Shown piece after piece: positions 4,055 to 21,029 of a stretch of DNA of 32,000 nucleotides. This DNA comes from Candidatus Hermodarchaeota archaeon (GTDB taxonomy: Archaea > Asgardarchaeota > Heimdallarchaeia > Hodarchaeales > Hodarchaeaceae). The notes beneath the pieces are model-generated. The model saw only the letters and a list, made by a program, of their open reading frames with translations. It was not told where the DNA came from and did no database searches. The translations under genes were made by a program, and so were the position numbers. Within the stretch, counting starts at the first letter, position 1, and every line of letters starts with the position of its first letter. The DNA lies in the NCBI GenBank assembly GCA_048886185.1, contig JBHLKY010000010.1, positions 108,526 through 140,525 of the forward strand. Direction: 5' to 3'.

Positions 4055-4102
4055 GACATCTACCTCATGAATTACGTTCTTAAATGGGGAGAATGATCTC
4101 GC

Positions 4103-4110
4103 TTTAAATA
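4103..4110 (-). promoter_or_regulatory. TATA-like box for the deiminase-PuuE-DinB unit
   Basis: TATTTAAA on the minus strand ~50 nt upstream of the 4054 start. Confidence 0.4.
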
Positions 4111-4127
4111 GTACTTCGAAAAAACTC

Positions 4128-4460
4128 TTAGGCTATTTTAAGTCCATTAGGTACTTTTCTATCTGGTTGAAGTAGAACAACTCCCCCGTTCTTTTTCACT
4201 ATGACTCCTAAGATCAGGACTTCAGACATGAAATTCGCAATTTGCTTTGGAGGGAAGTTTACAACAGCAATTACTTGTCTATTGATTAGTTCTTCTTTTT
4301 TGTATAAGGTTGTAATTTGAGCAGATGATTTTTTTATTCCTAGAGACCCAAAATCAACCTTTAATTTGTAAGATGGTTTTTTTGCGCCCACGAAGTCATC
4401 TACCTCAATGATTGTTCCAATACGCATGTCAACCTTTTCAAAATCATTCCAACTGATCAA
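4128..4460 (-). CDS. csaA: CsaA tRNA-binding/export chaperone (OB fold)
   Basis: WNDFEKVDMRIGTI, KPSYKLKVDFGSLG, SSAQIT, VVNFPPKQIANFMSEVLILG. Confidence 0.92.
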   Translation of the reverse strand: MISWNDFEKVDMRIGTIIEVDDFVGAKKPSYKLKVDFGSLGIKKSSAQITTLYKKEELINRQVIAVVNFPPKQIANFMSEVLILGVIVKKNGGVVLLQPDRKVPNGLKIA

Positions 4461-4554
4461 TACATTACCTACCTAGCTAAATCCTTCGTTAAAATATTCG
4501 TTGGTTTTGTGTTATCGTCAATTTCCCTATTTTACCATTGTTTTAACTCTGAGG

Positions 4555-5415
4555 TTAATGTGAAATTATTTTTAGAATTATATTTATCAATCTAAATCCG
4601 TTCATAAGTGTTTTATTATCCACATCGTTTTCTGGATTATAAGCAGTTAGCGCTGCAGCCTTGATCTGAAAATTTTCTTTGATAAGCTTGATAGCTTCTT
4701 CCATCTCGTCAAGAGAAAGGCCTTCTGGCGTGGGAAAGTCCACACCTGGAGCTTCTGAAGGATCAATCACATCAATATCGATGTGTAGATAAACTTCTTG
4801 AGTTTGTGAACTGAGCTGTGTAAGCCGATGTTGAAGGTTCTTCTGAATTCCAGTTTTTTTTAATGTGTCAGCATCAAGAACAAGAACTTCAGTACTTTCA
4901 AGAAGCTCACGTTCTTTGGGATCTAAGTCACGAACACCAATATGAAGAGTCTGAGATTCTTGAATCGGCCGCATATTTTCAATCATAGAAAATATATCTT
5001 GATAGCACTGACCCGTTGCAATTGCTAATCCCATACCATCAAAGAATCCACTAGGGGTTGTTTCAGGAGTATTAAAATCACCATGGGCATCAAACCATAT
5101 AATTCCAGGTTTTGGTTCATCAAATCCAGCAAGAGTACCAAGACATGTATTACAGTTTCCTCCCAGAATGAAAGGAAAAAAACCAGCATTTAATGCTTTT
5201 TTAACAACCTTTCCTAGAGAATTGCTTAAAACAGCAGTAGTTCTCACTACGTCTTTAAATTGTTCAAAAAGCTGGATGCATTCCACCATTACCTCATGAC
5301 CTTTATTTTTTAAATTCTGATCAATTCCTGCTTCTATAAAGCGGATTGGCCCCTTTCCCATGCCAAATTTCTCTTGACCTAAATGGAATGGAACTTGAAT
5401 GAGAGCGATCTTCAA
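4555..5415 (-). CDS. Arginase/ureohydrolase-superfamily protein with a non-canonical active site
   Basis: GGNCN (for GGDHS), WFDAHGDFNTPETTPSG, HIGVRDLD, HIDIDVIDP; TTG start with GGAGG upstream. Confidence 0.85.
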   Translation of the reverse strand: MKIALIQVPFHLGQEKFGMGKGPIRFIEAGIDQNLKNKGHEVMVECIQLFEQFKDVVRTTAVLSNSLGKVVKKALNAGFFPFILGGNCNTCLGTLAGFDEPKPGIIWFDAHGDFNTPETTPSGFFDGMGLAIATGQCYQDIFSMIENMRPIQESQTLHIGVRDLDPKERELLESTEVLVLDADTLKKTGIQKNLQHRLTQLSSQTQEVYLHIDIDVIDPSEAPGVDFPTPEGLSLDEMEEAIKLIKENFQIKAAALTAYNPENDVDNKTLMNGFRLINIILKIISH

Positions 5416-5457
5416 AACTCAGTGACCTCCTGTCAGTGTTCAATCATATTCTCTGAA

Positions 5458-6543
5458 TTATGGTTTTATAATGGCCTTCATAACTCTTAAATGCTCAACA
5501 TCGTCTAAAGCCTTTGCTGCTTCTTCTAATGAATACTCATGACTTATAATGGTTTTAAAAGGGTAGATAGTTGAATATCTTATGATTAAATTAACTGCCA
5601 AATAAAAGTGACTGAAATCACTGCCCCAAGATCCTTTTATTGTCAGATGTTTCTTATTTATGTCTAGATGTGGGTTTATTTGTACATCCCCAGCGTCAGT
5701 ATATTGGCCAACTATGGTGTATGTTCCTCCCTCCCTAGTCATTTCCAAACCTTCTTTAACTGCCGTTGGTACTCCTGTAGCTTCAATCGTTACATCAGTC
5801 CCGCGATTATGGGTGAGTTCTAATACCTTCTTAACTCTCTCATGAGGATCAGCATCCAATATGTTAATGGATGTGTCAATCCCAAAAGCAGCAGCAATCT
5901 TCAAACGGTGAGCAGGACCACCAAGCATGATAACATTAAAAGCTCCACTTAATTTTGCTAATAATGCTGCCATTAAACCAACAGGTCCTGAACCCTGTAT
6001 AGCAACTGAATCACCTAGTTTGATTTCAGAACGCTGAATTGCATGAATTGCAGTGGGTAACCCGCACCCTGCTGCCATAAATATTCTCATAAAAGCGTTA
6101 TATGGGAGCTTAATGATTTTAACGCCAGGTTTCAGATAAATATACTCAGACCACCCACCGAGAAGACCTTCTTTAGCTGAATACGTGATACCATATACCT
6201 TTCTATTAGGACACCGAGTACTAGTTTTTGCTACAAGACAATACCAGCAATTATTACAGGTTTCATGTACATCTAGAAATGTGATTGGATCCCCCTCTTG
6301 AAGTCGCACTCCGTCAATATCAACAACTTCACCATTTAACTTTTCAATAGTTCCAGTAGAAACATGCCCTGGGATAATTGGATAAGGTACCCCAGCTAAA
6401 CGACCTTTCTGAAGATGAACATCTGTTCCGCATACTTCTGAATAAGCTGTTTTTATTAATACAGCTCCTGGTTCCAAACTTGGGTAAGGTTGTTCCTGTA
6501 ATTTAATTGTACCGTCCTTTTTCATTATAATAGTTTTAACCAT
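5458..6543 (-). CDS. Zn-dependent medium-chain dehydrogenase (TM0436-like subgroup)
   Basis: CGTDVH, IPGHV, structural Zn CNNCWYC-x8-C, GCGLPT, Rossmann GSGPVG. Confidence 0.88.
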   Translation of the reverse strand: MVKTIIMKKDGTIKLQEQPYPSLEPGAVLIKTAYSEVCGTDVHLQKGRLAGVPYPIIPGHVSTGTIEKLNGEVVDIDGVRLQEGDPITFLDVHETCNNCWYCLVAKTSTRCPNRKVYGITYSAKEGLLGGWSEYIYLKPGVKIIKLPYNAFMRIFMAAGCGLPTAIHAIQRSEIKLGDSVAIQGSGPVGLMAALLAKLSGAFNVIMLGGPAHRLKIAAAFGIDTSINILDADPHERVKKVLELTHNRGTDVTIEATGVPTAVKEGLEMTREGGTYTIVGQYTDAGDVQINPHLDINKKHLTIKGSWGSDFSHFYLAVNLIIRYSTIYPFKTIISHEYSLEEAAKALDDVEHLRVMKAIIKP

Positions 6544-6570
6544 TGAACCAATTCCTGAAAATACTGTTCA

Positions 6571-6584
6571 TTATAAAGCTTTTT
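6571..6584 (-). promoter_or_regulatory. BRE/TATA-like promoter of the dehydrogenase-ureohydrolase unit
   Basis: AAAAAGCTTTATAA on the minus strand, ending 27 nt upstream of ATG 6543. Confidence 0.5.
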
Positions 6585-6600
6585 AAACATATTTTCGATT

Positions 6601-8094
6601 TTAGGAGTTACTTTTCTTTATCAAATAAATTGTGGATTTAGTTATTTCTAATTCTCTATCTGAACTTCTTAAATAAGAGATCACAGTACCTAATAATGCA
6701 AATAGGGAGAAAAGAAGAAACGTTTGTCCTAAACTTGTGTAATAACTTGAAATAAATACTGTTCCTGAAGTAATGTTATTTGGATTATTTATGAGGAAGA
6801 ATAAAGTAAATATCGATGAGCTAATAGTAGTACCTAAAGCAAATCCAATATTTCGCGAAAGACCTATTAGACCAGTAACCACACTCACATCTCCTTTTGG
6901 GGCTACATTCATCACAGAAGTACCATTTGACACGGTAAATGTAGTTAAAGATCCTGCTGAGAATGCAACTAGCGGTACAAGAATAAAAATAATTTCTTGC
7001 GAATTATTTGGGAATATATTAAACAAAACGGACAGAGACAAAACAGAAAAACCTAATATTACCGCACCAAATGAGGTCGATCGTTTTGCATCAATCTTTT
7101 CAGCGAAAAAACCTGCAAATGGTCCCATGACCGCCATTGCGAGAGGAGGGACGACCATTAAAATCCCTGTCTGATCTGGTGGGAATAATAGAACCTCCTG
7201 ATAATAGAATGGTAAAAGAAAAATAACACTATAATAAACCATATAACAAAGAAAAGAAGAGCTAATACCTGTTAAAATTGTTTTATCCCTCAGAATGTCC
7301 ACAGACACCATTGGTGTTGGATGATTACTTTCTATAAATAGGAAAATAATCCCAGATACTAAAGCGATTAAGATTAGAACTCCTCCGATGAGTTCTCCTT
7401 TAAATAAAGTCAAAATTCCTTGAACTAGAGAAAAAGCAGTGATGATAAAAACAAACATTCCCCCATAGTCAAGTTTATACCTTTTTTCGGGAGTTTCTGG
7501 AATGAATAGTTGAACCAGTAGAATTCCAAGTAATCCTATTGGTATATTTATCAGAAATATACTTGGCCACCCCACATATTTTGTTAAAAAGCCCCCAATA
7601 GCTGGTCCTGTAGAAAGTGCAGATGCAACTACTAGCGAATTAATACCGATAGCTCGACCCCTTATTGATGGTTCGACATATGTTATTACCAATGCCAAAC
7701 CATTGGCCATAAGACCAGCTGCACCAATTGCTTGAAGGGCTCGAGAGAGAACAAGAATCTCTAAAGAAGGAGAAAAAGCACAGAAGAGAGATCCCAATAT
7801 AAAAAATAACATTCCAAGTTGGAAGATTCTTTTTCTACCATAATTATCCCCTAAAGATCCACCAATTCCTATTAAGGATGATATTACAAGAAGATAGATA
7901 ATAGTCACCCATCTAACTCCTTCCATATCAGTTTTTAATGCCCTTGCTATTGTAAATAGAGAAATATTAACAATACTTCCATCAATGGCTGACATAAACG
8001 TTCCAATGGCAGTTATAGGGAGAATCATTCTTAATGGAATAAACATGGGGCTTGATGAAGGAGTATCAGAGGCTATATTGGTGATTTTTTCCAT
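6601..8094 (-). CDS. MFS transporter, DHA2 (14-TM, EmrB/QacA-like)
   Basis: IDGSIVNISL, motif A GSLGDNYGRKR, RALQAIGAA, GPAIGGFLT..GWPSIFLINIPIG. Confidence 0.9.
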   Translation of the reverse strand: MEKITNIASDTPSSSPMFIPLRMILPITAIGTFMSAIDGSIVNISLFTIARALKTDMEGVRWVTIIYLLVISSLIGIGGSLGDNYGRKRIFQLGMLFFILGSLFCAFSPSLEILVLSRALQAIGAAGLMANGLALVITYVEPSIRGRAIGINSLVVASALSTGPAIGGFLTKYVGWPSIFLINIPIGLLGILLVQLFIPETPEKRYKLDYGGMFVFIITAFSLVQGILTLFKGELIGGVLILIALVSGIIFLFIESNHPTPMVSVDILRDKTILTGISSSFLCYMVYYSVIFLLPFYYQEVLLFPPDQTGILMVVPPLAMAVMGPFAGFFAEKIDAKRSTSFGAVILGFSVLSLSVLFNIFPNNSQEIIFILVPLVAFSAGSLTTFTVSNGTSVMNVAPKGDVSVVTGLIGLSRNIGFALGTTISSSIFTLFFLINNPNNITSGTVFISSYYTSLGQTFLLFSLFALLGTVISYLRSSDRELEITKSTIYLIKKSNS

Positions 8095-9251: not shown

Positions 9252-11837
9252 TCAAGGTTTCCTCTGATATTTCTTTATTGTACCAAGAGTGAGAACAAAT
9301 ATCAAAAACAGTATAAAAGGAGGGAAGGATGCATAAGCATCTGTAAGTACTGGAGGACTGTTATTGATTTCAAATTCCCCCCATTCTTCCTTATAAAATG
9401 AATTTAAACCATGAGAGCATGTAGCGTTTATCATTAGGTAATATTGGCCATCTATTACATTTGTTGTATCCCAATCATAAGAAGTGATAGTTAAGCCTGA
9501 GCTTATTTCAGTCCAGTTCTGCTCATCCCAACCAAACCCTAGTTGTAAATAATAGAGAGAATAAGTTACCTTATGATTTTCAGTATCAAGTGATTCGAGC
9601 CACCGAATTGTGATTGTGCCGTTAATTTGTGTTCGTGACCAATCATCTGGGTTTGCAGGATCCCAACTAGTAGGAGAGGTTATTATTGGGCTTGTAAGAT
9701 AATGAATAGAACTATAATCATTATTTGGTTCTGTTTCTGGATTCTCATCATAATTATATTCATCATAATAATTAGATTGACCCAGTCTCCCAACCTTCAA
9801 TTTATAGTCTACAATACCATCTTTATCATCATCGGGGACTCGATAATTATCCCAAAAATTATGGTCGAACTCATAACAGAGACCATCACAATAGGCTTGA
9901 TAGAATTCTGCAGTTTGATATCTATTTCCGATAAAATCATTCAGTTTAATGATATTATTTTCTGGAATTGGATCACCAGATTCAAACCAATAGTAACCAG
10001 TAATACCATAATCTCTATTATGCCAGATAATGTTATTATCAATAATATTCCCAGCAGAATAACTAATTTCAATACCATTTCCAATGTTATCATAGATAAA
10101 ATTCAACGAAAGAATTGACTTATTTACAGAATCGATGGAAATGCCATTTTCATTTGAAAAAACTTTATTTAGGGTTAGATTACACTCATTCGATTCAGCA
10201 TAGAGAGAAATTCCATAATCATTGTAGTAATCGGATTTGTTTCCATTATTGAAAACATCATTACTTACAAGCGTTATATATGGAGAATTATAAATCGATA
10301 TCCCATTTTTACTATTGTTATGAATCTCACTGTTAAAAATAATAGAATTTTGGATATGATTAAAGGTAATTCCATTTCCATTGTTAAAAGAACTGTTTAT
10401 GTTTGAAAATGTATAATTATAGGGCTCAGAATATCCGCTAACAATTAAACCAGAATACTTATTGTCGATAGTTTCTACATTATGGATAGAGCTGTTATTA
10501 CAATCTTCGAGATAAAGTCCAATATCATTATTGAAGGTAAAAATGTCAGATAGTTCAATATTCCCAGAAAAATGAAGATAAAATCCAGTTCTGTTATTTT
10601 TTGAGCATGTAATTTCTGAAAAAAGACTATTCTCAGAGGCATGAACGTAAATACCATGTCCATTATTTTTAGAGCAATTTATGTTAGAAAAGGTGCTATT
10701 TCCACAATCTGTAATATAATTTGCATGATCGGAAGAAAATTCATATCGGTTATTCCCAAAACTAGATACATCTTTTATTACACAATTTTCACTATCCCAA
10801 AGATAGAATCCATCAGCCAAGTTATTATAGATAGTTAGATTTGATAGAGTGCAAAACCTAGATAGTCCCAATTCGATACCATATCGGGAATTATTAAAGA
10901 TAACATTATCTTTTATTGAATTATTATCAGACATGCTAGAATAGATCCCTTGATAATTATTAGAGATAATGTTGTCTGTAAAAGTGGAATTTCTTGACTC
11001 ATCAATATCCAATCCAGCTCTATAACCATTATTGTAAATATTATTTCTTGAAATAGTGCAGTTTCTTGATTTCCTTATTATTAATCCCTCGTTAATGTTA
11101 AAAGAAACAAAATTATTAGAAATAATCGTAGTATTTGAAGATAAAATAAGTATTCCTTCCGAACTTCCATCACATACCGTATTGAAAATCAAGTGATTCC
11201 CTTTTGTTTGATCAAGTAGAATTCCTGCTTCCTGAAGAGTGTTGTTTACAAGATTTGTAGAAATAACATTAGTATTAGAATCTTGAAGAACAATTCCATA
11301 ATTCAAATTATTAAAAATAATATTGTTGTAAATATACCCGTTACTCACATTTTCAAGGTAAATTCCTCTTGTACCATGTTGCAGCAAACAGTTGGTAATA
11401 TTGAAATAAACATCAGTATTTCTAATATCTATTAAATTAAAAGAACCAGTAGGGTCAGTAATATTTTTATTATTAATACTATAGGGTTTAACTGGGCTTC
11501 CATCGCCAGGAAAGGCTTCAAAATCTGTATTACCATTTATTATGATCGGTGAAGAATTTTCATAGAATGATGGTGCAGTGATAGAGACAATTTTGAAATT
11601 TGGTCTATTCAGCTGTGAGGGGACAGAATGAAATTCTTTTTTTCTAAGAGAATAGCCAGTGTAAGATTCATGATTCTCATAAACTTGTATTGAATGCTGA
11701 TTAATATTCTCGACTGTTTGAGCTGAGTTAACAGCCCTAGCTCCCGAGCTTGGAATAGGAATTCCTATTAGTAGAATCAGAAGAACCCCTGTTTTAAAAA
11801 GATGGATTCTAACTAAAATATCCCCTTTTTGTGTCAA
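9252..11837 (-). CDS. Surface parallel beta-helix (NosD/CASH) protein with Ig-like domain and C-terminal membrane anchor
   Basis: N-terminal hydrophobic signal, PIIING..GDGS..PY motif, many N-x-I-x-x-N-x-x-x-GI repeats, DDDKDG Ca-binding-like loop, Ig-like segment (WDTTNVIDGQY), then TM plus basic tail. Confidence 0.85.
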   Translation of the reverse strand: MTQKGDILVRIHLFKTGVLLILLIGIPIPSSGARAVNSAQTVENINQHSIQVYENHESYTGYSLRKKEFHSVPSQLNRPNFKIVSITAPSFYENSSPIIINGNTDFEAFPGDGSPVKPYSINNKNITDPTGSFNLIDIRNTDVYFNITNCLLQHGTRGIYLENVSNGYIYNNIIFNNLNYGIVLQDSNTNVISTNLVNNTLQEAGILLDQTKGNHLIFNTVCDGSSEGILILSSNTTIISNNFVSFNINEGLIIRKSRNCTISRNNIYNNGYRAGLDIDESRNSTFTDNIISNNYQGIYSSMSDNNSIKDNVIFNNSRYGIELGLSRFCTLSNLTIYNNLADGFYLWDSENCVIKDVSSFGNNRYEFSSDHANYITDCGNSTFSNINCSKNNGHGIYVHASENSLFSEITCSKNNRTGFYLHFSGNIELSDIFTFNNDIGLYLEDCNNSSIHNVETIDNKYSGLIVSGYSEPYNYTFSNINSSFNNGNGITFNHIQNSIIFNSEIHNNSKNGISIYNSPYITLVSNDVFNNGNKSDYYNDYGISLYAESNECNLTLNKVFSNENGISIDSVNKSILSLNFIYDNIGNGIEISYSAGNIIDNNIIWHNRDYGITGYYWFESGDPIPENNIIKLNDFIGNRYQTAEFYQAYCDGLCYEFDHNFWDNYRVPDDDKDGIVDYKLKVGRLGQSNYYDEYNYDENPETEPNNDYSSIHYLTSPIITSPTSWDPANPDDWSRTQINGTITIRWLESLDTENHKVTYSLYYLQLGFGWDEQNWTEISSGLTITSYDWDTTNVIDGQYYLMINATCSHGLNSFYKEEWGEFEINNSPPVLTDAYASFPPFILFLIFVLTLGTIKKYQRKP

Positions 11838-12275: not shown

Positions 12276-13127
12276 ATGGTTTCTATTTATACAAAAGTGG
12301 GCCTAGCTTTTTTTGCTTTAGGAATAACAATTATTATTGTACTCTCCGTACTCCGTGTCCCCATACCTTTTTTTGCAGGAAGATATGGTCAATCTATATC
12401 AATGGAACCCATCCCAATAAATGGCAGTTATGTTGATATTCAGATTCCTGGAAGCTATTCTCATCCATTTAGTAATTTACAACTGACTATTAGAAGTACT
12501 ATCTTAGGGGAACCTGGGGAAGAGCTCTGGGGAAGTGTTAAGTTATTATATTCAAATCTTGGAAAAGATATATTTGGGGAACTTCCCGCTTGGGGGGATA
12601 CGTCATTTTATTTAAATTCTGGGGGGATAGGAAATGAGCAACAACTGACTACATCTATGACCCTGAATCGAAAATACGCTTCCAGTAGTTTTAGTCTATA
12701 TTTGCGGATTAAATGCGACCCCACATTTAATCCTGACGTTAAATATACTGGATCTCTTTATTTGAAAGAGTGTGAAATTGAAGTTATCTATACTCTTTTT
12801 GCAGCAGTTATACCACCAATCATTATACTAATCGGTTTAGTAGTATTTATTGGAGGCTTTTTAATCAATTATAGAAAACTTACAGCCAAACCTAAATTTA
12901 GGGATGTGCCAAGTGGATGGGAACCATCCTTGAAAATGGGGACTGCCTTTGAGCCTAAGGAGAAAAAAGCAACGATGACTATTAAACCTACCAAAGAAAA
13001 GCCTAAAAAGAAATTTGTGAAGAAAACAGTCCCCACAAAGGGTCCTGAACATGCTTGTAAATACTGTGGGAAAAGCGTTTCCACTTCGGCTTTTTTCTGT
13101 CCACACTGTTATGGTAAGTTGCGATAG
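12276..13127 (+). CDS. Two-TM membrane protein with Lys-rich linker and C-terminal zinc ribbon
   Basis: TM near the N-terminus, second TM (AAVIPPIIILIGLVVFIGGFLI), CKYC-x10-CPHC at the C-terminus. Confidence 0.75.
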   Translation: MVSIYTKVGLAFFALGITIIIVLSVLRVPIPFFAGRYGQSISMEPIPINGSYVDIQIPGSYSHPFSNLQLTIRSTILGEPGEELWGSVKLLYSNLGKDIFGELPAWGDTSFYLNSGGIGNEQQLTTSMTLNRKYASSSFSLYLRIKCDPTFNPDVKYTGSLYLKECEIEVIYTLFAAVIPPIIILIGLVVFIGGFLINYRKLTAKPKFRDVPSGWEPSLKMGTAFEPKEKKATMTIKPTKEKPKKKFVKKTVPTKGPEHACKYCGKSVSTSAFFCPHCYGKLR

Positions 13128-13203
13128 CAGCCACACGAATGAATCAAAGAACTTTTCGACTAATTATTATGGTGTTCTAGAAATTTATTATTATGGTGAT
13201 TTA

Positions 13204-14025
13204 TTGGGCTGTACTACAGGCGCTAAAGTCTTTAAGGATAGACAAACACTAGTTGTGTTTAAAAATAAAGACTTTAAAGAAAGAAACCATATCGATGAAC
13301 TCTTCCTTGAAGATTATAATGCATTTGGTGTTCGGGGTGTTAATCTTCAAATTAAAAAATCAACTGGCCTATCAATTGGAGTCAATCAACATGGTCTTGT
13401 GGCTGTGAACTCGAACATATTGGCCACTCCAGATTCCCCTTATGATCTGATAACTGAACGTATTGTTTTGGAAGCCAAGACTATTGATGAAGCCGTAGAA
13501 ATATGTGAAAGAGAAATTAGATCTACAAATTATCAATGGTGCAATATGGTTGTAGCAACCCCAGAACAGCTAATAGCCTTGGAAATTACATCTTCGGAAA
13601 TTGCTACTGTACGATCACGTGATTACTTAGTCCGCACGAATCATCATTTGATTCTTGATACCAATGAAATATTGATAAATGTTGATCCCGAGAAAGAATG
13701 GCAAAATATTGAGCATAGTAAGATTCGGTATAAAAATGCTGATAGATATCTTAAACATGCCTCAGATATCCAAGCAATATATTCAATGCTTGCCTCACAC
13801 CAAGAAAAGGGCTCAATATGCCGTCATGGGACTGCATATGCCCAGGATTTGTCGTATACAAGTGTTTACAGCTATCTAATAGCCATTAATATCGAGGAGA
13901 GCCCTAAAATAATTTTCAACGTATCAAAAGGACCTCCTTGTCAAAACACTTATGTTAAATTCAATCTAGAATTTCCATTAACTCCTAAGAAGAATAATTT
14001 AATTAAGGATTCTTTCCCATATTAA
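13204..14025 (+). CDS. Ntn-hydrolase (peptidase C45/C59/C69-like, N-terminal Cys nucleophile)
   Basis: Start moved from 13051 to TTG 13204, which follows GGTGAT, giving MGCTT; FKNKD, GVNQHGL and RTNH motifs. Confidence 0.75.
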   Translation: MGCTTGAKVFKDRQTLVVFKNKDFKERNHIDELFLEDYNAFGVRGVNLQIKKSTGLSIGVNQHGLVAVNSNILATPDSPYDLITERIVLEAKTIDEAVEICEREIRSTNYQWCNMVVATPEQLIALEITSSEIATVRSRDYLVRTNHHLILDTNEILINVDPEKEWQNIEHSKIRYKNADRYLKHASDIQAIYSMLASHQEKGSICRHGTAYAQDLSYTSVYSYLIAINIEESPKIIFNVSKGPPCQNTYVKFNLEFPLTPKKNNLIKDSFPY

Positions 14026-14037
14026 CAATTGAATAAA

Positions 14038-15459
14038 TTAGCCATCTAGGGGGGGCCAATTATCGTTGTGAAAAATAAGTCCCGAGTCTTTATCCGTTCT
14101 CTCAAAACCATGAGCTCCAAAATAATCTCTTTGAGCCTGAATTAGATTAGTTGGTAGTGAGGGGTTCCTATAACTGTCATAATAAGATAAAGCTGATGAT
14201 AAGACTGGTAAAGGTATTCCATTTTCCACGGCTAGTTTAATTATGAATCTCCAGTCTTTTTGACAATTATTTAAGACATTAACAAAATAGGGATCTAAGA
14301 GAAGATTATCAAACCCTTTTTGAAAAACCCTCTCAATCTGCTCCAAGATACGAGCACGTATAATGCACCCATTACGCCATATATGAGCTATATCTTTAAG
14401 GTTCAATTGCCATTGGTATTCTTTTGAAGCTGCTTTAAGTAATGAAAATCCTTGAGAATAATTACAAATTTTGGTAGCAAGCAGTGCCTTCTGTGCTGCA
14501 TCGACCAGCAAATTTTTTTCCCCTAAGAACTGAGGAGTCGGACCTTTCAATAAATTGGAGGCTTTTATTCTGTCGTTTCTTTTAGATGAGATATTCCTAG
14601 CAAAGACTGCTTCCATAATACTTGGCGCTGGTATTCCAATTTCTAATGCTTCTTGGCTAGCCCATTTTCCAGTACCTTTTTGCTTCGCAGAATCCAGAAT
14701 CAAATCAATTAAGGGTTTCCCTGTTTCAGGATCTTTTTCAGATAAAATTTTAATAGTAATTTGAATTAAGTAGGAATTGAGATCTCCCTTATTCCATTCA
14801 GCGAATATTCTTTTTAATTCAGAAGGTTTCATATCAAATATTTTCTTTAAAATATAATAAACCTCTGCAATTGATTGCATATTGGCATATTCGATACCAT
14901 TATGTATCATTTTCACATAGTGACCCGCTCCATCAGGACCGAGGTAACTACAACATGGATCCCCATTAATTTTCGCAGAAATTTTGTAGAATAACTTTTC
15001 TATGTGTTTCCAAGCTTCTTTTGACCCTCCGGGCATGATTGAAGGTCCTCTTAAAGCCCCTTCCTCACCTCCAGAAATACCTATCCCTAGAAAATGAATT
15101 CCTTTTTTCCTCAGTTTTTCGGTTCTCTCGATTGTATCTCTAAAAAAAGAGTTCCCACCATCAATAATTATATCTCCTAATTGTAAAAAAGGTAGGAGCT
15201 TTGAAATTAAATCATCAACTGGCAAACCAGCTTTAACCATAAGAATCAATATTCGGGGTCGTTTTAAAGTGTTGCAAAGGTTTTCTAAGCTATAACATCC
15301 TATGATATTCTTCTCAGACCCCTTTCCATTGATAAATTCTTCAAGCTTTTGTGTCGTTCTATTGAAAACCGCAATGGTATAACCATTTCTTTCCATATTC
15401 AAAACTAAATTTTGACCCATTACTGATAATCCAATAAGACCAATTTCAGCTTTTATCAT
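14038..15459 (-). CDS. gnd: 6-phosphogluconate dehydrogenase, decarboxylating, long NADP-type
   Basis: IGLIGLSVMG, NRT, MVKAG, DGGN, SGGEEGA, KMIHNGIEY, QKGTGKW, QAQRDYFGAH. Confidence 0.97.
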   Translation of the reverse strand: MIKAEIGLIGLSVMGQNLVLNMERNGYTIAVFNRTTQKLEEFINGKGSEKNIIGCYSLENLCNTLKRPRILILMVKAGLPVDDLISKLLPFLQLGDIIIDGGNSFFRDTIERTEKLRKKGIHFLGIGISGGEEGALRGPSIMPGGSKEAWKHIEKLFYKISAKINGDPCCSYLGPDGAGHYVKMIHNGIEYANMQSIAEVYYILKKIFDMKPSELKRIFAEWNKGDLNSYLIQITIKILSEKDPETGKPLIDLILDSAKQKGTGKWASQEALEIGIPAPSIMEAVFARNISSKRNDRIKASNLLKGPTPQFLGEKNLLVDAAQKALLATKICNYSQGFSLLKAASKEYQWQLNLKDIAHIWRNGCIIRARILEQIERVFQKGFDNLLLDPYFVNVLNNCQKDWRFIIKLAVENGIPLPVLSSALSYYDSYRNPSLPTNLIQAQRDYFGAHGFERTDKDSGLIFHNDNWPPLDG

Positions 15460-15465
15460 TATATT

Positions 15466-16755
15466 TCACATTTGCTTAAATTTCTCTTCAACAGTCCATA
15501 ATCCAATTGCTGGATTTCTGATGAAAAATATCTCCTCACCGTCAGGAAGTTGATTAAATCCTTCTTTCAACTTACTTGGATTATATACATTAATAACTTC
15601 AGAAAGATCTTTGTATTGATAGTTGACTCTTTCGATCTCATTCTTTCTGATGTATCTAGGGCAATATGTTATCTTAAATCTATTCTCAGAAGATCCATGA
15701 ATTAAATGAGCAGCTGCCGAAAGATTCTGTTGTAAATCTTCATTTTTCTTAACTAGATTAATAATTTCACTGCTATTACGATAACCGTACTTTCTAATTA
15801 TTTGATCTATTGTTTTATCCTCACCAAATTGTTTTAATCCAGGTGCAAGGATGATAAGTTCTCCATCATCCTCTAGTGCCATTCTTGTTCTATAAATTGC
15901 CTTATTGCCTAACCAAGTACTCTTAAATTTCGTCGGATCTAGGAAAACAACAATTTTATCTATTGGATTATTTAAAAAGGTTAAATTGATTTTTTGACTT
16001 AATTTTGCAGCTTTTTTGAATGATTGATTATCATTTCCAGTATATATACCTTTTAGTGTTGGTTTTCCAGATTCATCTACAGTTAAAACTGTTAGGATAT
16101 ATAACAGTGGAATGTCTGATAAAAAGGTAGATTCTGCATAATCAAATAGTTCCCTGACAGGATTATCGCTCTTCCCAATCATTCGTTCCATTCCATAACA
16201 GGCGCCTAGGAAATGACTTTTATTGATTATGTCACTTCCACCAACTCCTACTAGGATATTCTTATTACCATTTGCCATACCTGCTACTTCATGAGGAACA
16301 ACTTGTCCGATTGAAATTATTAAGTCGTAATTCGTTTCTAAGATCTCTTTATTTATTTCAACTTTAATGGAATAATTCACTTTACCCTCAGATAAATCTT
16401 CTACAACCTCTTGTGGAACTACTCCTATCTCGATAACATCATTACGCCAATCATGAACCATAAACCTCTCTTTAGGAATACCTTCAAACATTACTGATAT
16501 CTCGTTGTCAGTTAGGGGGGAATGTGTTCCTAATGCTGGTAATACTTTCACTTGACAATTTTTTTTTAAAAGATGATATAGAACTTGAGTTATTTGTCCC
16601 CCTTTTGAATGATATCTAGTAAAATCAGGCGGAATCAAAAGAATTTTCTTTGGTGAGCCATCAAATTCGTTTATTAATTCTTCTAAGAGTTTTTTCTTCT
16701 GATTAAGGGTGATTTCTTTTTCTATGGATTCTAAACTCTTAAGAATAATATTCAC
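15466..16755 (-). CDS. LarA-family (DUF2088) nickel-pincer racemase/epimerase; probable D-gluconate/D-mannonate 2-epimerase (GntE-like)
   Basis: PPDFTR, ALGTH, PHEVAG..NGNKN (cofactor Lys), KSHF (Ni His); sits between a sugar kinase and gnd. Confidence 0.8.
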   Translation of the reverse strand: MNIILKSLESIEKEITLNQKKKLLEELINEFDGSPKKILLIPPDFTRYHSKGGQITQVLYHLLKKNCQVKVLPALGTHSPLTDNEISVMFEGIPKERFMVHDWRNDVIEIGVVPQEVVEDLSEGKVNYSIKVEINKEILETNYDLIISIGQVVPHEVAGMANGNKNILVGVGGSDIINKSHFLGACYGMERMIGKSDNPVRELFDYAESTFLSDIPLLYILTVLTVDESGKPTLKGIYTGNDNQSFKKAAKLSQKINLTFLNNPIDKIVVFLDPTKFKSTWLGNKAIYRTRMALEDDGELIILAPGLKQFGEDKTIDQIIRKYGYRNSSEIINLVKKNEDLQQNLSAAAHLIHGSSENRFKITYCPRYIRKNEIERVNYQYKDLSEVINVYNPSKLKEGFNQLPDGEEIFFIRNPAIGLWTVEEKFKQM

Positions 16756-16758
16756 CTC

Positions 16759-18336
16759 TTAATCTATCTCTTCCTCAGATTGGATTATTTGATAATTATC
16801 TGGTGTTTGATAAACTTCCATATATCTTCTGTAGAGTGTGGTGAGGATTTTTTTTAATTTATTATCTTCAGGTAGTATAGGGTCAAGTGTGGTCACTGGA
16901 GGCATTTCCTCAAGTACTCCCAAATAAGTTAAGGCTCTCATACCAGTTGCCCATGCGACTGATTGTTTTGTTTTCATAATAACAACTTTTTTATTTACTA
17001 ATGACGCTAAAAATCGCAAAAATAATCGTGATTTCCGTGCGATTAATCCTGTTAATCGAATTTCATTGTAATTATCTGGAGTGTCAAGAACTTCTAAATT
17101 ATGTTTATACATATTCACAATACCAATTATCAGAGAGATATAAAGATCAATACAATTTATTGAGTTTTCTCTTATTATAATAAATCCCCCTTTTACTCTT
17201 CCTCGTCCATTTGGTCCCCTTGGTTCTCCCTCAATATATGGAAAGTATAGAGGGATTTTTAAAAAGTATGATTCCAAGTCTGCAGCAATATCTTCAAGTT
17301 TTTGCAGAGCTTCTTTTTCTAATCTTTCAATATTAACATTATTACTCTCAGTAATGAAATTTTTGAAAGCTACCTTAAAGTTTTTACCAACCCATACAAA
17401 TGATGTACCAACATTGTTGAATGGAATAAGTTCAACCCATTTGTTGTCATCTATTTGACACATTTGAATAAGTCGACTCCTATACTTTGATTTTGGAGAT
17501 TTTCTCATTCTCCGAAATGCTCCTGTGGAACTTGCAGATCCTATGAGAATATCTTCACTATCAACTCCTGTTGCCCAAAAGGCATCAATTCCATCAATTG
17601 TGCCAGTTACAATATAGGTATTCCTAAAATTATCTAAAAGCTGTTTAAATTTATCTTTGATAGGAAAAACTGTACCCATGGGGATTATTTCAGGTAAGAT
17701 GGATAATTCTAAATCCAAGTTCTGAAGAAGTTTTTCATCCCAATTTCTATGTTCTAATGAATATAATCCAGTATAAGAAGCATTGGGGACTGTAGAGAAG
17801 ATTTTTTCAAGTGGTAAATCGGTTAAACTCCAAGTAAGATAATCATTAATGGTTGTTATCTTGAAGCACGAGCTAAATGAAGATTCTTTAATTTTCAATA
17901 GTTGGACATAAGGTAGGGCCCCACTGTATAGACTTCCTGTTCTTTCCTGGAAATTGGATGGTAAAAACTTCACATAATCCTGTGCACCTTGATAAGCATA
18001 CGTAAAAGCGTGTGTTAATGGTTGAGCTTCTTTGGAGAGTAAAACAAGTGATGGTCCAATGCTTGAAATAGATAATGAATACACATTGATGTTTGGCCAA
18101 TCTTTCAGTAGAGTGTAAAGTTGATTTTCAACAATATTCTTTAATGTAGTGACGTTGATTCTCTTTTCATTATCCCAGATGAGATAACTTTGCTTTTTAA
18201 GAGCGTTATAAGTCGCTATTTGCTCACTTAATTTAGTTCCTGCTCTATCTAGGAGTAACAATCTAATTCCAGAACTACCTACATCAATACCAATGGTACA
18301 GACGGAATCATCTGTAGAAGTCATTCTTTTATTCAC
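16759..18336 (-). CDS. FGGY-family carbohydrate kinase, probable gluconokinase (start may be ATG 18324)
   Basis: IGIDVGSSGIR, YTGLYSL, GTIDG, SASSTG, PYIEGEPRGP. Substrate inferred from context only. Confidence 0.8.
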   Translation of the reverse strand: MNKRMTSTDDSVCTIGIDVGSSGIRLLLLDRAGTKLSEQIATYNALKKQSYLIWDNEKRINVTTLKNIVENQLYTLLKDWPNINVYSLSISSIGPSLVLLSKEAQPLTHAFTYAYQGAQDYVKFLPSNFQERTGSLYSGALPYVQLLKIKESSFSSCFKITTINDYLTWSLTDLPLEKIFSTVPNASYTGLYSLEHRNWDEKLLQNLDLELSILPEIIPMGTVFPIKDKFKQLLDNFRNTYIVTGTIDGIDAFWATGVDSEDILIGSASSTGAFRRMRKSPKSKYRSRLIQMCQIDDNKWVELIPFNNVGTSFVWVGKNFKVAFKNFITESNNVNIERLEKEALQKLEDIAADLESYFLKIPLYFPYIEGEPRGPNGRGRVKGGFIIIRENSINCIDLYISLIIGIVNMYKHNLEVLDTPDNYNEIRLTGLIARKSRLFLRFLASLVNKKVVIMKTKQSVAWATGMRALTYLGVLEEMPPVTTLDPILPEDNKLKKILTTLYRRYMEVYQTPDNYQIIQSEEEID

Positions 18337-18413
18337 ACATAACTTTTTTGAATCCAGATATTACTAGAAGATAAAAATTATCACACTGATTGAGAATTCC
18401 GAGTTTGAGAACA

Positions 18414-19421
18414 ATGGATTGGAATTCCCGCGAACGAGTATTAACTGCTTTTAAACATCATGAACCTGATCGTGTTCCATTATTTGAAGCTTGGATTGAA
18501 TCAGAAATAGTTGAGGCTCTTGGAGGAGATCCTTATCTTGCGAGGGAAAGACTTGGTCTTGATTGTATGCCACTTGGGGAACATCCAGAAAATACTAAAG
18601 CGTACAAAAGTGGAATAGATGAATGGGGACGTATCTTTAAAAATGGACATTATCAAATGGGGATGGTTAAAACAGAGAAAGACTTAGAGAAATATTCTGC
18701 GCCCACTTCGCATGCTCAAGATTGGTTTCCATGGGAAAAAATAAAAATCGTTAAGGAAAAATATTCGGAGAATTACGCTTGTTTCTTTGCATGGCATGAT
18801 TGTTCTCTAGGATTAACTTACTTGAGTATGGGAATGGAGAACTTCTTTCGATCATTATATGATCAACCTGAATTAGTAAAAGCAGTGATTGAGAGGAGTA
18901 CTGAATGGACAATTGCCGTAGTAGATCAAGCTAACCAAAGTGAAGTAGACTTCATAATCCTAGGAGATGATGCCGCGGACAATTCACGTCCTCTGATTTC
19001 TCCCAAATTATTTGGTGATTTGATCCTTCCTGAATACAAAAAAATTGTGAAGGCCTCTGATGCCCCAATAATATGGCATAGCGATGGTCACATTACTCCT
19101 TTGCTTTCAATGATCATCGAAGCAGGTTTTATGGGTGTACATTCATTAGAAAAAAAAGCTAATATCAATCTAGCAAATATTAAAAGGCAATATGGTGATA
19201 AATTAGTTTTAGCAGGGAATTTAGATACTACTGAAATTCTAAGTCAGTCAGATCTTACTCTTGTCAGAAAAGATGTTGAGCGATGTTTAAACGAGGGTGC
19301 CCCAGGAGGAGGATTTCTATTCTCATCTAGTAACAGCTTGTTTGAGGGTCATGATATAAGTGCAATTCTGGAGGCTTATCGTTACGCGAAGGAAATTGGA
19401 GAGTACCCAATTCATATTTAG
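18414..19421 (+). CDS. Uroporphyrinogen decarboxylase-fold (URO-D/MtaA-like) protein of unknown function
   Basis: SRERVLTAFKHHEPDRVP, DEWG, MGMENFF, GDD, WHSDG, LAGNLD, PGGGF. ATG 18414 preferred over TTG 18390. Confidence 0.8.
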   Translation: MDWNSRERVLTAFKHHEPDRVPLFEAWIESEIVEALGGDPYLARERLGLDCMPLGEHPENTKAYKSGIDEWGRIFKNGHYQMGMVKTEKDLEKYSAPTSHAQDWFPWEKIKIVKEKYSENYACFFAWHDCSLGLTYLSMGMENFFRSLYDQPELVKAVIERSTEWTIAVVDQANQSEVDFIILGDDAADNSRPLISPKLFGDLILPEYKKIVKASDAPIIWHSDGHITPLLSMIIEAGFMGVHSLEKKANINLANIKRQYGDKLVLAGNLDTTEILSQSDLTLVRKDVERCLNEGAPGGGFLFSSSNSLFEGHDISAILEAYRYAKEIGEYPIHI

Positions 19422-19424
19422 GAA

Positions 19425-21029
19425 TTAGCTCTCCTTTCTCTTTTTAATCCTCGCATAAAAAAGAAATTCTTCCTTCCCAGGGATTAGTTCAATTTCATGG
19501 TCTTCGGTTAACTTGAGTTTTTCTGATATCTCTTCAGGAATTTTAATAACGTTATTCCTCACTTTTACAATCTTAGAGCTTTCAGCATCTTTAATAACAG
19601 GAACACCTCGAAATCTATCGCGAATATTTTCTTGAAAAGATACTGCCTTACGTATCCCTTTTTCTACTACTTTTTCGAATTCCTCATGTGAGTCAAATCC
19701 CATCATTGATGTGACAACATTTGGATCAATTAACTTGACTTGTTGTTTTACTATTATTTCCTCCCAATCCTCCCTTGTGATTCTATAAAGGGAAGAAATA
19801 TTAATATTCTTTTTTTTGATGGGAATATCTTCTGATTCGATTTTTGATTTTGATACATGAAACTGAATTTTTTTTGTCCCACTTCTTGAAACTCTTTTAT
19901 TTGTTGCCTTTTCACTCGTTAATCTGGTGGGTTTCACCTTTAAGTTGGCAAGGAAAACCCCTGCTCTCTCCTCTAATGTATCAGTAAAAGGAACCTTTAA
20001 CAAAACATCTCCCTTAATATAATTAATGATTTTGTCCTTTTTTCTAATTCTAATGGGTTCTAATACACTATAGAACTCTTGTAGGTCTTTTGCTTCAATC
20101 TGTTTGAGTTCATCGAATATTTTAGGAATTATTACTTTACTCTCTTCGACTATATCATTAGTTCTTGATCGAATTACCCCACTATCTAGAGCTATCTTTG
20201 TTATCGCTGTTGTTAAAGATGTTATACCCATTACTAATGAAAAAGCGACCAATCCTGCAGAAAATATATCAAATGGAAGAATATCCACAAGTAGGAAAAG
20301 AATAACCAAAACGCTCCATTTTAATGTCTGTATTGGTCCTTCAATTGTCTTGAGGAATAATTGCACAGGATCGAGAATAATATCAGGAATATGTAATCTG
20401 AAAAGTCGACTATATTGGAATATAAGCTCTGTGAAACCTATGGTTAGAAATATAATATCCGCGTAAGGATTCAACATATTTAGTTCTTCCAACAGAGTTA
20501 GAATTTCTAGAATTACTGCTAACTTCCATAGGTTAAGGAGAAAATAGGAGATAAGAGGAGGGAGATCAAAGATGATATCTTCAAAGACTTCTGAAGAAGG
20601 GATTGTGAACCAAACGAGAAAGATCAAGATTAAGTAAAAGATTAGTATTTGATTAATTGTAAACGCTATTTCGGGACTTAATGTTATCTTAAAGGTTTTA
20701 TTGGGATATCCCAAATGCACAATAAACCAAGAGACGACATAACCTATGATACTCCCCCCACTGACCTGTCCTGCGGTTAAAGACCTTAATTTTCTTGATT
20801 GGAGTCTTGCTACAACTGAAATTAATAAACCAATTCCTCCCAGTCCAATTAAGTAAACAGGCTCGATAATTGGCCTAAAAAAGACGCTGAACACCCAAAT
20901 TACATTAACAAATACTCCTAAACCCGCTATTTTGCTTCTATATTCTTTATTATCAGTAGAACTCCATAATTTTTGTCCAAATAACTTCACATCAAGCTCT
21001 CTAGCCAAATATCTTTCCTCGTTAGGCAA
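19425..21029 (-). CDS. Polytopic membrane protein with cytoplasmic C-terminus ending in an AbrB/MazE-like segment
   Basis: Roughly 7-8 hydrophobic helices in the first ~280 aa; terminal VIKIPEEISEKLKLTEDHEIELIP. Confidence 0.7.
   Translation of the reverse strand: MPNEERYLARELDVKLFGQKLWSSTDNKEYRSKIAGLGVFVNVIWVFSVFFRPIIEPVYLIGLGGIGLLISVVARLQSRKLRSLTAGQVSGGSIIGYVVSWFIVHLGYPNKTFKITLSPEIAFTINQILIFYLILIFLVWFTIPSSEVFEDIIFDLPPLISYFLLNLWKLAVILEILTLLEELNMLNPYADIIFLTIGFTELIFQYSRLFRLHIPDIILDPVQLFLKTIEGPIQTLKWSVLVILFLLVDILPFDIFSAGLVAFSLVMGITSLTTAITKIALDSGVIRSRTNDIVEESKVIIPKIFDELKQIEAKDLQEFYSVLEPIRIRKKDKIINYIKGDVLLKVPFTDTLEERAGVFLANLKVKPTRLTSEKATNKRVSRSGTKKIQFHVSKSKIESEDIPIKKKNINISSLYRITREDWEEIIVKQQVKLIDPNVVTSMMGFDSHEEFEKVVEKGIRKAVSFQENIRDRFRGVPVIKDAESSKIVKVRNNVIKIPEEISEKLKLTEDHEIELIPGKEEFLFYARIKKRKES

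Follow-up and report, generated by a model that had tools for sequence, protein, structure and literature searches.

How an archaeon would use a sugar-acid kinase, a nickel-pincer epimerase homolog, and a 6-phosphogluconate dehydrogenase encoded side by side is the question raised by a locus in a 32,000-nucleotide stretch of contig JBHLKY010000010.1 (the window). The window is syntenic with named Hodarchaeota and Heimdallarchaeota genomes, in agreement with the Asgard host that a preliminary description had deemed probable. The locus consists of three minus-strand open reading frames (ORFs), namely the kinase gene (16,759–18,336), the gene for the LarA homolog (LarAH, 15,466–16,755), and gnd (14,038–15,459). 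A 3-bp gap (GAG) separates the kinase TAA from the LarAH GTG, and a 6-bp gap (AATATA) separates the LarAH TGA from the gnd ATG. The ORF coordinates, gap sequences, and family matches bear out the co-directional three-gene operon that had been claimed. The operon is flanked downstream by a convergent gene (13,051–14,025, plus strand) and upstream by a divergent one (18,390–19,421, plus strand), and no transporter gene was found among its genes. The 53-bp divergent intergenic region 5′ of the kinase (18,337–18,389) contains the A/T-rich TAATTTTTAT at 18,371–18,380, which is a candidate archaeal TATA-type promoter. Based on the sequence comparisons below, we consider it probable that the three genes are transcribed as a unit and serve to break down or salvage aldonic acids of six carbons by way of the epimerase (likely D-mannonate to D-gluconate), the kinase, and Gnd.

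The third gene encodes a 473-aa, long-form Gnd that scores 674 bits on NF006765 (cut-off 413) and 666 bits on TIGR00873 (cut-off 427). The N33-R-T35 NADP (2′-phosphate) motif and K183/H186/N187/E190 can be read directly, and the protein is firmly predicted to be an NADP-dependent decarboxylating 6-phosphogluconate dehydrogenase. The second gene encodes, from its GTG start, a 429-aa protein that scores 641.3 bits on NF052594 (cut-off 500), with the runner-up, the MAR LarAH6 family, at 81 bits. This score assigns LarAH firmly to group 18 of the LarA homologs (NF052594 of NCBIfam, "putative hexonate epimerase") and places this putative NPN-dependent hexonate 2-epimerase in the hexonate-epimerase branch and not among the lactate or malate racemases, a placement that the preliminary description had proposed to check. 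The best PDB match is 4NAR, the Thermotoga maritima GntE2 apoprotein (E 9e-32). Alignment to 2YJG and 4NAR mapped the LarAH residues onto LarA (LarA numbering in parentheses): D44 (D72) and R47 (R75) within D44-F-T-R47, H78 (H108) in ALGTH, H155 (H174) in H155-E156-V157, K165 (Lys184) in GNKN, and H181 (H200) in NKSH. By this alignment, K165 occupies the cofactor-Lys position and H181 the Ni-ligand position. The Asp-Thr-Arg, His, and cofactor-Lys motifs pointed out earlier can thus be read directly in LarAH, and the NPN-binding and catalytic residues are invariant or nearly so across 20 homologs. LarAH also carries the specificity signature of the GntE branch, with E156 and V157 after the second catalytic His, W281, and A349 and H350, the last two being placed on LarA W358/T359 via motif identity with published group-18 members and not by structural superposition.

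Conversion of D-mannonate to D-gluconate is the published activity of LarAH groups 19 and 20, whose loop E-V, alpha-11 W, and alpha-14 A are also present in group 18 (PMC7583248). The Asgard protein agrees with group 18 (G2E3) of Desguin et al. 2020 in family score, NPN and catalytic residues, and motif strings, which are identical to those of ACP_2683 and Acid345_4308 (Dataset S1 of that study); the published members are all bacterial, whereas the LarAH described here is Asgard (PMC7583248). GntEs were described as exclusively bacterial or eukaryotic in a 2024 JBC paper, and the most recent survey states that the GntE-type branch is absent from archaea (PMC11770544). [quoted passage not shown] 2023, PMC10307638). 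A search of the genome for larB, larC, and larE, likewise suggested beforehand, recovered all three above cut-off (larE, 276 bits; larB, 237 bits; larC, 142 bits, with Pfam Ni_insertion at 288 bits). They are adjacent in the order larE-larB-larC on contig C1 (205,679–208,650), away from the operon. These genes occur in 21 of 22 genomes of the Hodarchaeales genus whether or not LarAH18 is present, because a second LarA homolog exists (C1:97,146).

The longest ORF of the kinase gene encodes 525 aa. The ATG at 18,324 (Met5 of this ORF) is the more likely start, because the 10-residue N terminus preceding IGIDVGSSG then matches the orthologs. Pfam FGGY_N (76 bits) and FGGY_C (30 bits) both exceed their gathering scores, and the NCBIfam scores are weak (XylB, 100 bits; gntK_FGGY, TIGR01314, 80 bits). 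Since the latter is far under the equivalog cut-off of 648.55 bits, we label this FGGY-family sugar-acid kinase as a predicted gluconokinase-like hexonate 6-kinase and not as GntK. When a profile of the kinase family was compared with the PDB, the best match was the FGGY gluconate kinase of Lactobacillus acidophilus (3GBT/3LL3, of the Bacillus subtilis GntK type) with 121 bits over the full length, while glycerol kinases reached at most 54 bits. The catalytic and ATP-site Asp and Gly motifs are kept, and 27 family members show no variation at G16, D18, G20, G245, D248, G310, T311, T429, and G430. The clade comprises ∼30 proteins, all in Asgard-labelled records; scores fall from 648 to 157 bits on leaving it, and a very long branch parts it from every other FGGY kinase. 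The top-scoring model for nine of its ten nearest outside proteins is gntK_FGGY. The kinase accordingly belongs to a lineage-specific, isolated FGGY clade with gluconokinases as its closest outside kin, so that the gluconokinase proposed in the preliminary description holds for the relatives of the enzyme but not at the level of the equivalog family.

The full triad is present in 9 of the 22 genus genomes. Full-length kinase is found in ten, Gnd in the same ten, and LarAH18 in nine of those; an 11th genome (G077) has only a kinase fragment at a contig end. Kinase and Gnd always occur together, LarAH18 never occurs without both, and the genes sit next to one another in every case, in kinase-LarAH-gnd order. 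The triad is kept in GCA_048938105.1, GCA_048886865.1, and Heimdallarchaeota B3_Heim, and also on divergent contigs with different flanks (L011, L016, L048, and L049), where kinase identity drops to 48%. In the closed genome CP070695.1 (a 4.94-Mb chromosome), kinase and gnd are 66 bp apart and LarAH is missing; the kinase is nested among those of LarAH-bearing operons (SH-aLRT 99). We interpret this genome as a secondary loss of the epimerase and a natural deletion variant. In this genome, which retains the kinase-gnd pair, Gnd must still use the product of the kinase. Beyond this genus, the module is essentially absent from 378 further Asgard genomes (400 in all). This confinement, together with the 54–60% identity of the epimerase and Gnd to bacterial proteins, is consistent with an ancient uptake from bacteria, joined to a kinase that is specific to Asgard archaea.

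In the proposed pathway, group-18 LarAH, loaded with NPN by LarB/LarE/LarC, would invert C2 of a hexonate, as its family and conserved residues suggest. The most likely reaction would be D-mannonate to D-gluconate, with transient hydride transfer to the cofactor and a 2-keto intermediate. The FGGY kinase would then phosphorylate D-gluconate at C6 to give 6-phosphogluconate, a step suggested by its nearest relatives and by the fact that kinase and gnd stay paired where the epimerase has been lost. Gnd, the family assignment of which is firm, would convert 6-phosphogluconate to ribulose-5-phosphate, CO2, and NADPH by oxidative decarboxylation, and ribulose-5-phosphate could proceed to ribose-5-phosphate through RpiA or into the ribulose monophosphate enzymes (HPS), both of which are present in the genome. 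A search for canonical Zwf found none in the 22 genus genomes. The bypass of glucose-6-phosphate dehydrogenase that had been claimed agrees with this result, and the kinase is the only recognizable source of 6-phosphogluconate; another source, such as the haloarchaeal Azf-type glucose-6-phosphate dehydrogenase (an SDR), may nevertheless exist. Two further expectations were not borne out. The first was entry into the pentose phosphate pathway: transketolase (Transketolase_N) was not found in the genome, so carbon would not flow via the classical nonoxidative branch and there would be no full pathway to enter. The second was a supply of mannonate from hexuronates: UxaC was not found in the genome by HMM or tblastn, nor was UxaE by tblastn, the one method applied to it, nor UxuA by HMM, and the Mannitol_dh_C HMM for the fructuronate reductase UxuB had no match in the 22 genus genomes. 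Zwf, UxaC, UxuA, and transketolase were all detected in Thermotoga, which served as a control. Unassigned SDR-type reductases exist in the genome, an SGL-type gluconolactonase was not found, and no intracellular mannonate- or gluconate-forming enzyme was recognized. Uptake from the surrounding sediment, or production by some dehydrogenase, is therefore the probable origin of the hexonates. With no hexuronate-derived supply, mannonate is a substrate that we infer. Given that the searches for Zwf, UxaC, UxaE, UxuA, UxuB, and transketolase had no match, the operon would constitute a stand-alone route from hexonate through 6-phosphogluconate to ribulose-5-phosphate; it would not be a pathway for hexuronates, nor would it lead into a complete pentose phosphate pathway.

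The same operon logic could serve a different epimerase substrate, either 6-phospho-D-mannonate, which would yield 6-phosphogluconate after the kinase has acted, or another aldonate that reaches gluconate, with pairs such as L-gulonate/L-idonate, D-altronate/D-allonate, and D-galactonate/D-talonate. We regard this as unlikely, though with several observations in its favor. The very high Km of GntE1 for mannonate (PMC7583248) suggests a different native substrate, group 18 is still termed 'putative', and the genome is without a recognized mannonate-forming enzyme. The gene order matches a kinase-first pathway, and in the 80 closest bacterial loci a PfkB kinase lies directly upstream of LarAH18 in 23 and a PdxB-type 2-hydroxyacid dehydrogenase, from a family that acts on a phosphorylated aldonate, lies between LarAH18 and Gnd in 18; the kinase-epimerase-dehydrogenase order and the PdxB-like enzyme would both fit an epimerase working after phosphorylation. 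However, the characterized relatives all use nonphosphorylated 2-hydroxy acids, the E,V…W…A,H signature matches the mannonate/gluconate epimerases, and the kinase must take gluconate itself given that the kinase-gnd pair outlives epimerase loss. One form of this alternative, based on the gene order, is that LarAH18 would be the first nickel-pincer enzyme on a phosphorylated sugar acid (6-phospho-hexonate to 6-phosphogluconate) in a route that replaces the Zwf branch, which we view as improbable. If true, hexonates from the environment or derived from mannose would reach ribulose-5-phosphate by an archaeal route that is complete in itself, and this route would replace the Zwf branch in the closest archaeal relatives of eukaryotes.

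It is very doubtful that LarAH acts on some unrelated 2-hydroxyacid and is only a passenger beside a kinase and Gnd that by themselves salvage gluconate. One closed genome does without the epimerase, and the distribution of larBCE and the second LarA homolog would agree with such a role, but LarAH18 in the genus is never without kinase and Gnd, it holds the same slot where the kinases are only 48–56% identical, and its linkage to Gnd is independently conserved in many bacterial phyla (Gnd within 6 kb in 58 of the 80 loci; 32% of the group-18 contexts listed in Table S1 of Desguin 2020, PMC7583248). Bacterial contamination of an archaeal MAG is hardly credible: despite a contamination estimate of 4.96% and the bacterial likeness of LarAH and Gnd, the 209-kb contig has a GC content of 0.348 against 0.352 for the genome, shares >15 kb of synteny with several independently assembled Hodarchaeota/Heimdallarchaeota genomes including the closed chromosome, and carries a kinase family confined to Asgard-labelled records, and all 79 of 79 bacterial LarAH sequences lie across one supported branch (SH-aLRT 96) from the Asgard side.

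The preferred reading, a hexonate operon of epimerase, kinase, and Gnd, has a counterpart in T. maritima. There, the conversion of D-mannonate to D-gluconate by GntE2 (TM0442, LarAH20, 4NAR) was shown biochemically (PMC7583248), and a hexuronate-to-pentose-phosphate shunt with GntE2, an FGGY GntK, and Gnd is attributed in that paper to Rodionova 2012. The same three activities are proposed here and 4NAR is the closest structure, but GntE2 belongs to group 20 and the Asgard LarAH to group 18, with low alignable identity. The Thermotoga route also lies within a UxaC/UxaE/UxuB hexuronate regulon, in a host with the Zwf, UxaC, UxuA, and transketolase that were not found here. Of the Thermotoga clustering given in the preliminary description, only the linkage to the FGGY kinase, and not that to gnd, is confirmed, with the kinase present in 86% of group-20 contexts (PMC7583248). 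Bacterial LarAH18 loci lie in hexuronate clusters (UxaC, UxaE, SDR, and KduI), usually with a PfkB kinase and often with a PdxB-like dehydrogenase; the Asgard operon has an FGGY kinase and none of these genes. The partial pathway of Heimdallarchaeia (PMC10307638) and the haloarchaeal oxidative pentose phosphate pathway with Azf likewise combine Gnd, no canonical Zwf, and an output of NADPH and ribulose-5-phosphate. In contrast to them, 6-phosphogluconate would here come from the operon kinase (with the epimerase) and not from glucose-6-phosphate oxidation, and the module is accessory.

No new kind of pathway emerges from the operon; the archaeal variant is new, while the module concept has been published for bacteria. 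With this operon, archaea join the GntE-type (hexonate epimerase) branch of the nickel-pincer LarA superfamily and the isolated FGGY kinase clade gains a clear functional hypothesis, and the natural epimerase-deletion variant can steer experiments. The largely bacterial ancestry of the operon agrees with the published view that the origin of these enzymes is not common to the eukaryotic ones. [quoted passage not shown]

The operon consists of three reverse-strand ORFs, namely an FGGY kinase (16759-18336), a LarA homolog that starts with GTG (15466-16755), and gnd (14038-15459), which encodes 6-phosphogluconate dehydrogenase (Gnd). At the junctions, the kinase stop is followed by 3 bp (GAG) before the GTG, and the stop of the LarA homolog by 6 bp (AATATA) before the gnd ATG, confirming the co-directional arrangement and gap lengths in the preliminary description. 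Downstream, a convergent gene ends 12 bp from gnd; on the other side, 53 bp separate the kinase ORF from the start of a divergent gene. Given these flanking genes and the tight gaps, the triad is a cleanly bounded unit. The kinase start is probably the ATG at 18324 rather than the GTG at 18336, because orthologs show 10 residues ahead of the IGIDVGSSG motif.

The source MAG (4.84 Mb, 96% complete) contains no assembled 16S rRNA gene. The window (contig C10, positions 108526-140525) shares synteny across many genes with GCA_048938105.1 (Promethearchaeota archaeon) and GCA_048886865.1 (Hodarchaeota archaeon), and also with CP070695.1, a closed 4.94-Mb Candidatus Heimdallarchaeota chromosome. The contig itself is 209 kb long with a GC content typical of the genome, and genes for Orc1/Cdc6 and the small subunit of PolD are found elsewhere in the MAG. 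The suggested Asgard origin is thus borne out by the synteny with named Asgard genomes and by the Orc1/Cdc6 and PolD genes, and contamination is very unlikely.

Against NCBIfam NF052594 ("nickel-dependent putative hexonate epimerase"; cut-off 500 bits), the LarA homolog reaches 641 bits, versus at most 81 bits for malate, lactate, and other racemase families, and so a lactate or malate racemase identity does not hold. NF052594 corresponds to group 18 (LarAH18) of Desguin et al. 2020 (PMC7583248), whose function as a hexonate epimerase was predicted from signatures shared with groups 19 and 20, the two experimentally shown D-gluconate 2-epimerases (GntE). The same study reported Gnd in 32% of group 18 contexts and proposed that GntE activity probably lets mannonate into the pentose phosphate pathway (PMC7583248). 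The closest solved structure is 4NAR, the apoprotein of Thermotoga maritima GntE2 (E 9e-32); the LarA apoprotein 2YJG and Mar2 are far weaker matches. Structure-sequence alignments and 20 homologs pair D44/R47, H78, H155, K165, and H181 with LarA D72/R75, H108, H174, K184, and H200, respectively, in keeping with the Asp-Thr-Arg, His, and cofactor-Lys motifs described earlier. The same alignments reveal the GntE-branch signature E156-V157, W281, and A349-H350. A link to eukaryotic GntE (Phytophthora LarAH15) was considered and rejected; the protein has no significant match to NF052592, which covers LarAH14/15/16, giving no sign of a special relationship between the Asgard and eukaryotic enzymes.

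The nickel-pincer (NPN) cofactor genes larE, larB, and larC, which the preliminary description proposed to look for elsewhere in the genome, each score past their cut-off and lie side by side on contig C1. Within the window's genus, 21 of 22 genomes have LarB, with or without LarAH18, probably because a second LarA homolog is present. In the source MAG, this 468-aa protein (C1:97146-97751; L050:1417-2823) has the malate racemase LarAH6 family as its top NCBIfam match, at 255 bits versus a cut-off of 500. The cofactor supply is therefore present, yet it is not specific evidence for the triad. On C1 (194000-212000; L132), larC-larB-larE sits between a block of acyl-CoA dehydrogenase, AllF-like, and AllG genes with two SDRs and a xanthine-dehydrogenase-type molybdoenzyme. 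In the relative GCA_976602785.1 (L016), the triad with KduI and an SDR occupies the gap between the same two blocks.

The kinase belongs to a narrow family. Both FGGY domains are found, yet the protein is very divergent, and the NCBIfam scores for XylB (100 bits) and gntK_FGGY (80 bits) are far under the cut-offs. A word-indexed search of 5.8 billion proteins returned just 33 relatives, each of them either in a record labelled Hodarchaeales, Heimdallarchaeota, or Promethearchaeota or on an unnamed metagenome contig. When 1.84 billion representatives were searched exhaustively with a profile, three full-length cluster representatives scored at least 648 bits and the next only 157 bits. Among the ten nearest outsiders, gntK_FGGY was the best family for nine and tied with XylB for one. 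Against PDB sequences, the family profile matched gluconate kinase 3GBT/3LL3 over its full length (121 bits) and glycerol kinases in the N-domain only (at most 54 bits). D18 and D248 are invariant, which fits an active FGGY kinase. Based on the PDB match, the nearest outsiders, the invariant Asp residues, and the sub-cut-off gntK_FGGY score, we annotate the protein as a putative gluconokinase-like FGGY kinase outside the GntK equivalog. In one genus member (G062:C168:27166-28713), the kinase contains an in-frame TGA, reflecting either a pseudogene or a sequencing error.

The family assignment of Gnd is unambiguous at the sequence level, with 674 bits against NF006765 and 666 against TIGR00873, both well past the NCBIfam cut-offs, an NRT NADP motif at residues 33-35, and K183/H186/N187/E190. 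The closest non-Asgard proteins are from Lentisphaerota and Latescibacterota (57-59% identity). Two short fragments resembling the Gnd C terminus lie about 2 kb apart on the reverse strand of contig C3 (92718-94929; L134 about 4719-6930) and match Gnd residues 337-420 and 398-467 at 42-64% identity. They bracket a 469-aa ORF without a Pfam match, adjoin the Orc1/Cdc6 and PolD small-subunit genes, and are ordered in a way that is non-collinear with a simple insertion. These may be what is left of a second gnd, or traces of an integration event.

The kinase-LarAH-gnd order repeats in Heimdallarchaeota B3_Heim and in several divergent contigs with different flanks. Across 400 Asgard genomes, LarAH18 exceeded the cut-off only in the window's genus (9/22 genomes). 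A near miss in another Asgard family (G159, L026) scored 472 bits, is very divergent with a very long branch, and has no gnd or FGGY gene within 1.5 kb. The full-length kinase was likewise confined to the genus (10/22 genomes), with one fragment outside it, in a different Asgard family (G138:C687); in an eleventh genus genome (G077), just a fragment of the kinase is seen, at the end of a contig. Within the genus, full-length kinase and Gnd occur in the identical set of 10 genomes, adjacent every time, and LarAH18 lies between them in nine. The exception is the closed genome CP070695.1, where kinase and gnd are spaced by 66 bp and LarAH18 is missing. In a kinase tree rooted with gntK-like outsiders, the CP070695.1 kinase is nested among LarAH-bearing operons (SH-aLRT 99), and therefore the epimerase was lost secondarily while kinase and Gnd were kept intact. 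This loss offers the strongest available case for the kinase producing the Gnd substrate itself, by converting gluconate to 6-phosphogluconate, with the epimerase serving to broaden the range of usable substrates.

When one genome per prokaryotic species was scanned by pattern, about 590 LarAH18 relatives emerged, the best 80 of which are all bacterial and span at least eight phyla. The typical order at these 80 loci (L052-L131) is SDR, (PfkB kinase), LarAH18, (PdxB-like 2-hydroxyacid dehydrogenase), Gnd, often with UxaC and UxaE nearby. Gnd lies within 6 kb of LarAH18 in 58 loci, a PfkB-family kinase directly upstream in 23, and a PdxB-like dehydrogenase with DUF3410 between LarAH18 and Gnd in 18; an FGGY kinase is nearby in two, and one of the Asgard type in none. 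The Asgard operon thus keeps the LarAH18-Gnd core without the bacterial hexuronate context, and its kinase slot, filled by FGGY rather than PfkB, appears to reflect non-orthologous displacement. An unrooted LarAH tree places 79 bacterial sequences on one side of a branch and all Asgard-context sequences on the other (SH-aLRT 96). One transfer suffices for this distribution, and we infer its direction from the wide bacterial versus narrow archaeal distribution only.

Several window genes were considered as partners. The URO-D/MtaA-CmuA-like methyltransferase homolog (18390-19421, forward strand), sub-threshold for all equivalogs, lies divergently next to the operon in every close relative, the LarAH-less genome among them. 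It was rejected together with a C45 hydrolase (13051-14025), since both are conserved in close relatives only, also flank the LarAH-less variant, and are missing beside distant triads. A Zn-dependent dehydrogenase (5458-6543, Pfam Glu_dehyd_C), a candidate glucose/mannose dehydrogenase giving hexonates, was not included because its NCBIfam matches are non-specific and sub-threshold and its linkage holds in close relatives only. Next after the methyltransferase homolog is a 534-aa ORF without a Pfam or NCBIfam match (19425-21029, reverse). At 9252-11837 (reverse), a protein of 861 aa with several NosD/right-handed beta-helix repeats adjoins EamA and DHA2-type MFS transporter genes, a block kept in close relatives and missing from CP070695.1. 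Also on the reverse strand (3-1814 and 3125-5415) are an Eco57I/N6-adenine methylase-type restriction-modification gene at the window edge and arginine deiminase/DDAH-like and arginase-family (agmatinase-like) genes around a small tRNA-binding-domain protein.

The genomic context supports part of the proposed pathway. Canonical glucose-6-phosphate dehydrogenase (Zwf) was not found in any of the 22 genus genomes, consistent with the suggested bypass of this enzyme and making the operon kinase the only recognizable 6-phosphogluconate source in a search that covered canonical Zwf; a haloarchaeal Azf-type enzyme may be another. The outline of the preliminary description is largely right, although the missing hexuronate and transketolase genes mean that it needs adjusting. 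UxaC and UxuA were not found in the genome, UxaE, Eda, KdgK-like PfkB, and KduI had no tblastn match there, and UxuB-type Mannitol_dh_C was not found in 22/22 genus genomes, leaving no hexuronate pathway to make mannonate. Neither an SGL lactonase nor a transketolase was found in the genome, and without the latter there is no classical pentose phosphate pathway to enter. RpiA and 3-hexulose-6-phosphate synthase are present. The match to the latter (C15:38395-39018; L136) falls inside a stop-to-stop frame of 822 aa, hinting at a fusion protein. In the adjusted route, hexonate would be converted to 6-phosphogluconate and then to ribulose-5-P and NADPH by the group 18 epimerase, the Asgard-specific gluconokinase-like FGGY kinase, and the bacterial-type Gnd, and ribulose-5-P could go into ribose-5-P synthesis or be used by the ribulose monophosphate enzymes. 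The hexonate could come from uptake or some dehydrogenase; this source, the epimerase substrate, and whether kinase or epimerase acts first are what we infer.

Our literature search found no papers joining Heimdallarchaeota or Hodarchaeales with mannonate or gluconate, and NCBI already labels the B3_Heim ortholog "D-mannonate epimerase." In Hodarchaeales the locus is thus a conserved but accessory operon with a predicted role in hexonate use, and a new archaeal variant of a concept published for bacteria. As such, it would revise the taxonomic range so far given for GntE-type enzymes and would account for an otherwise orphan Gnd in the closest archaeal relatives of eukaryotes.
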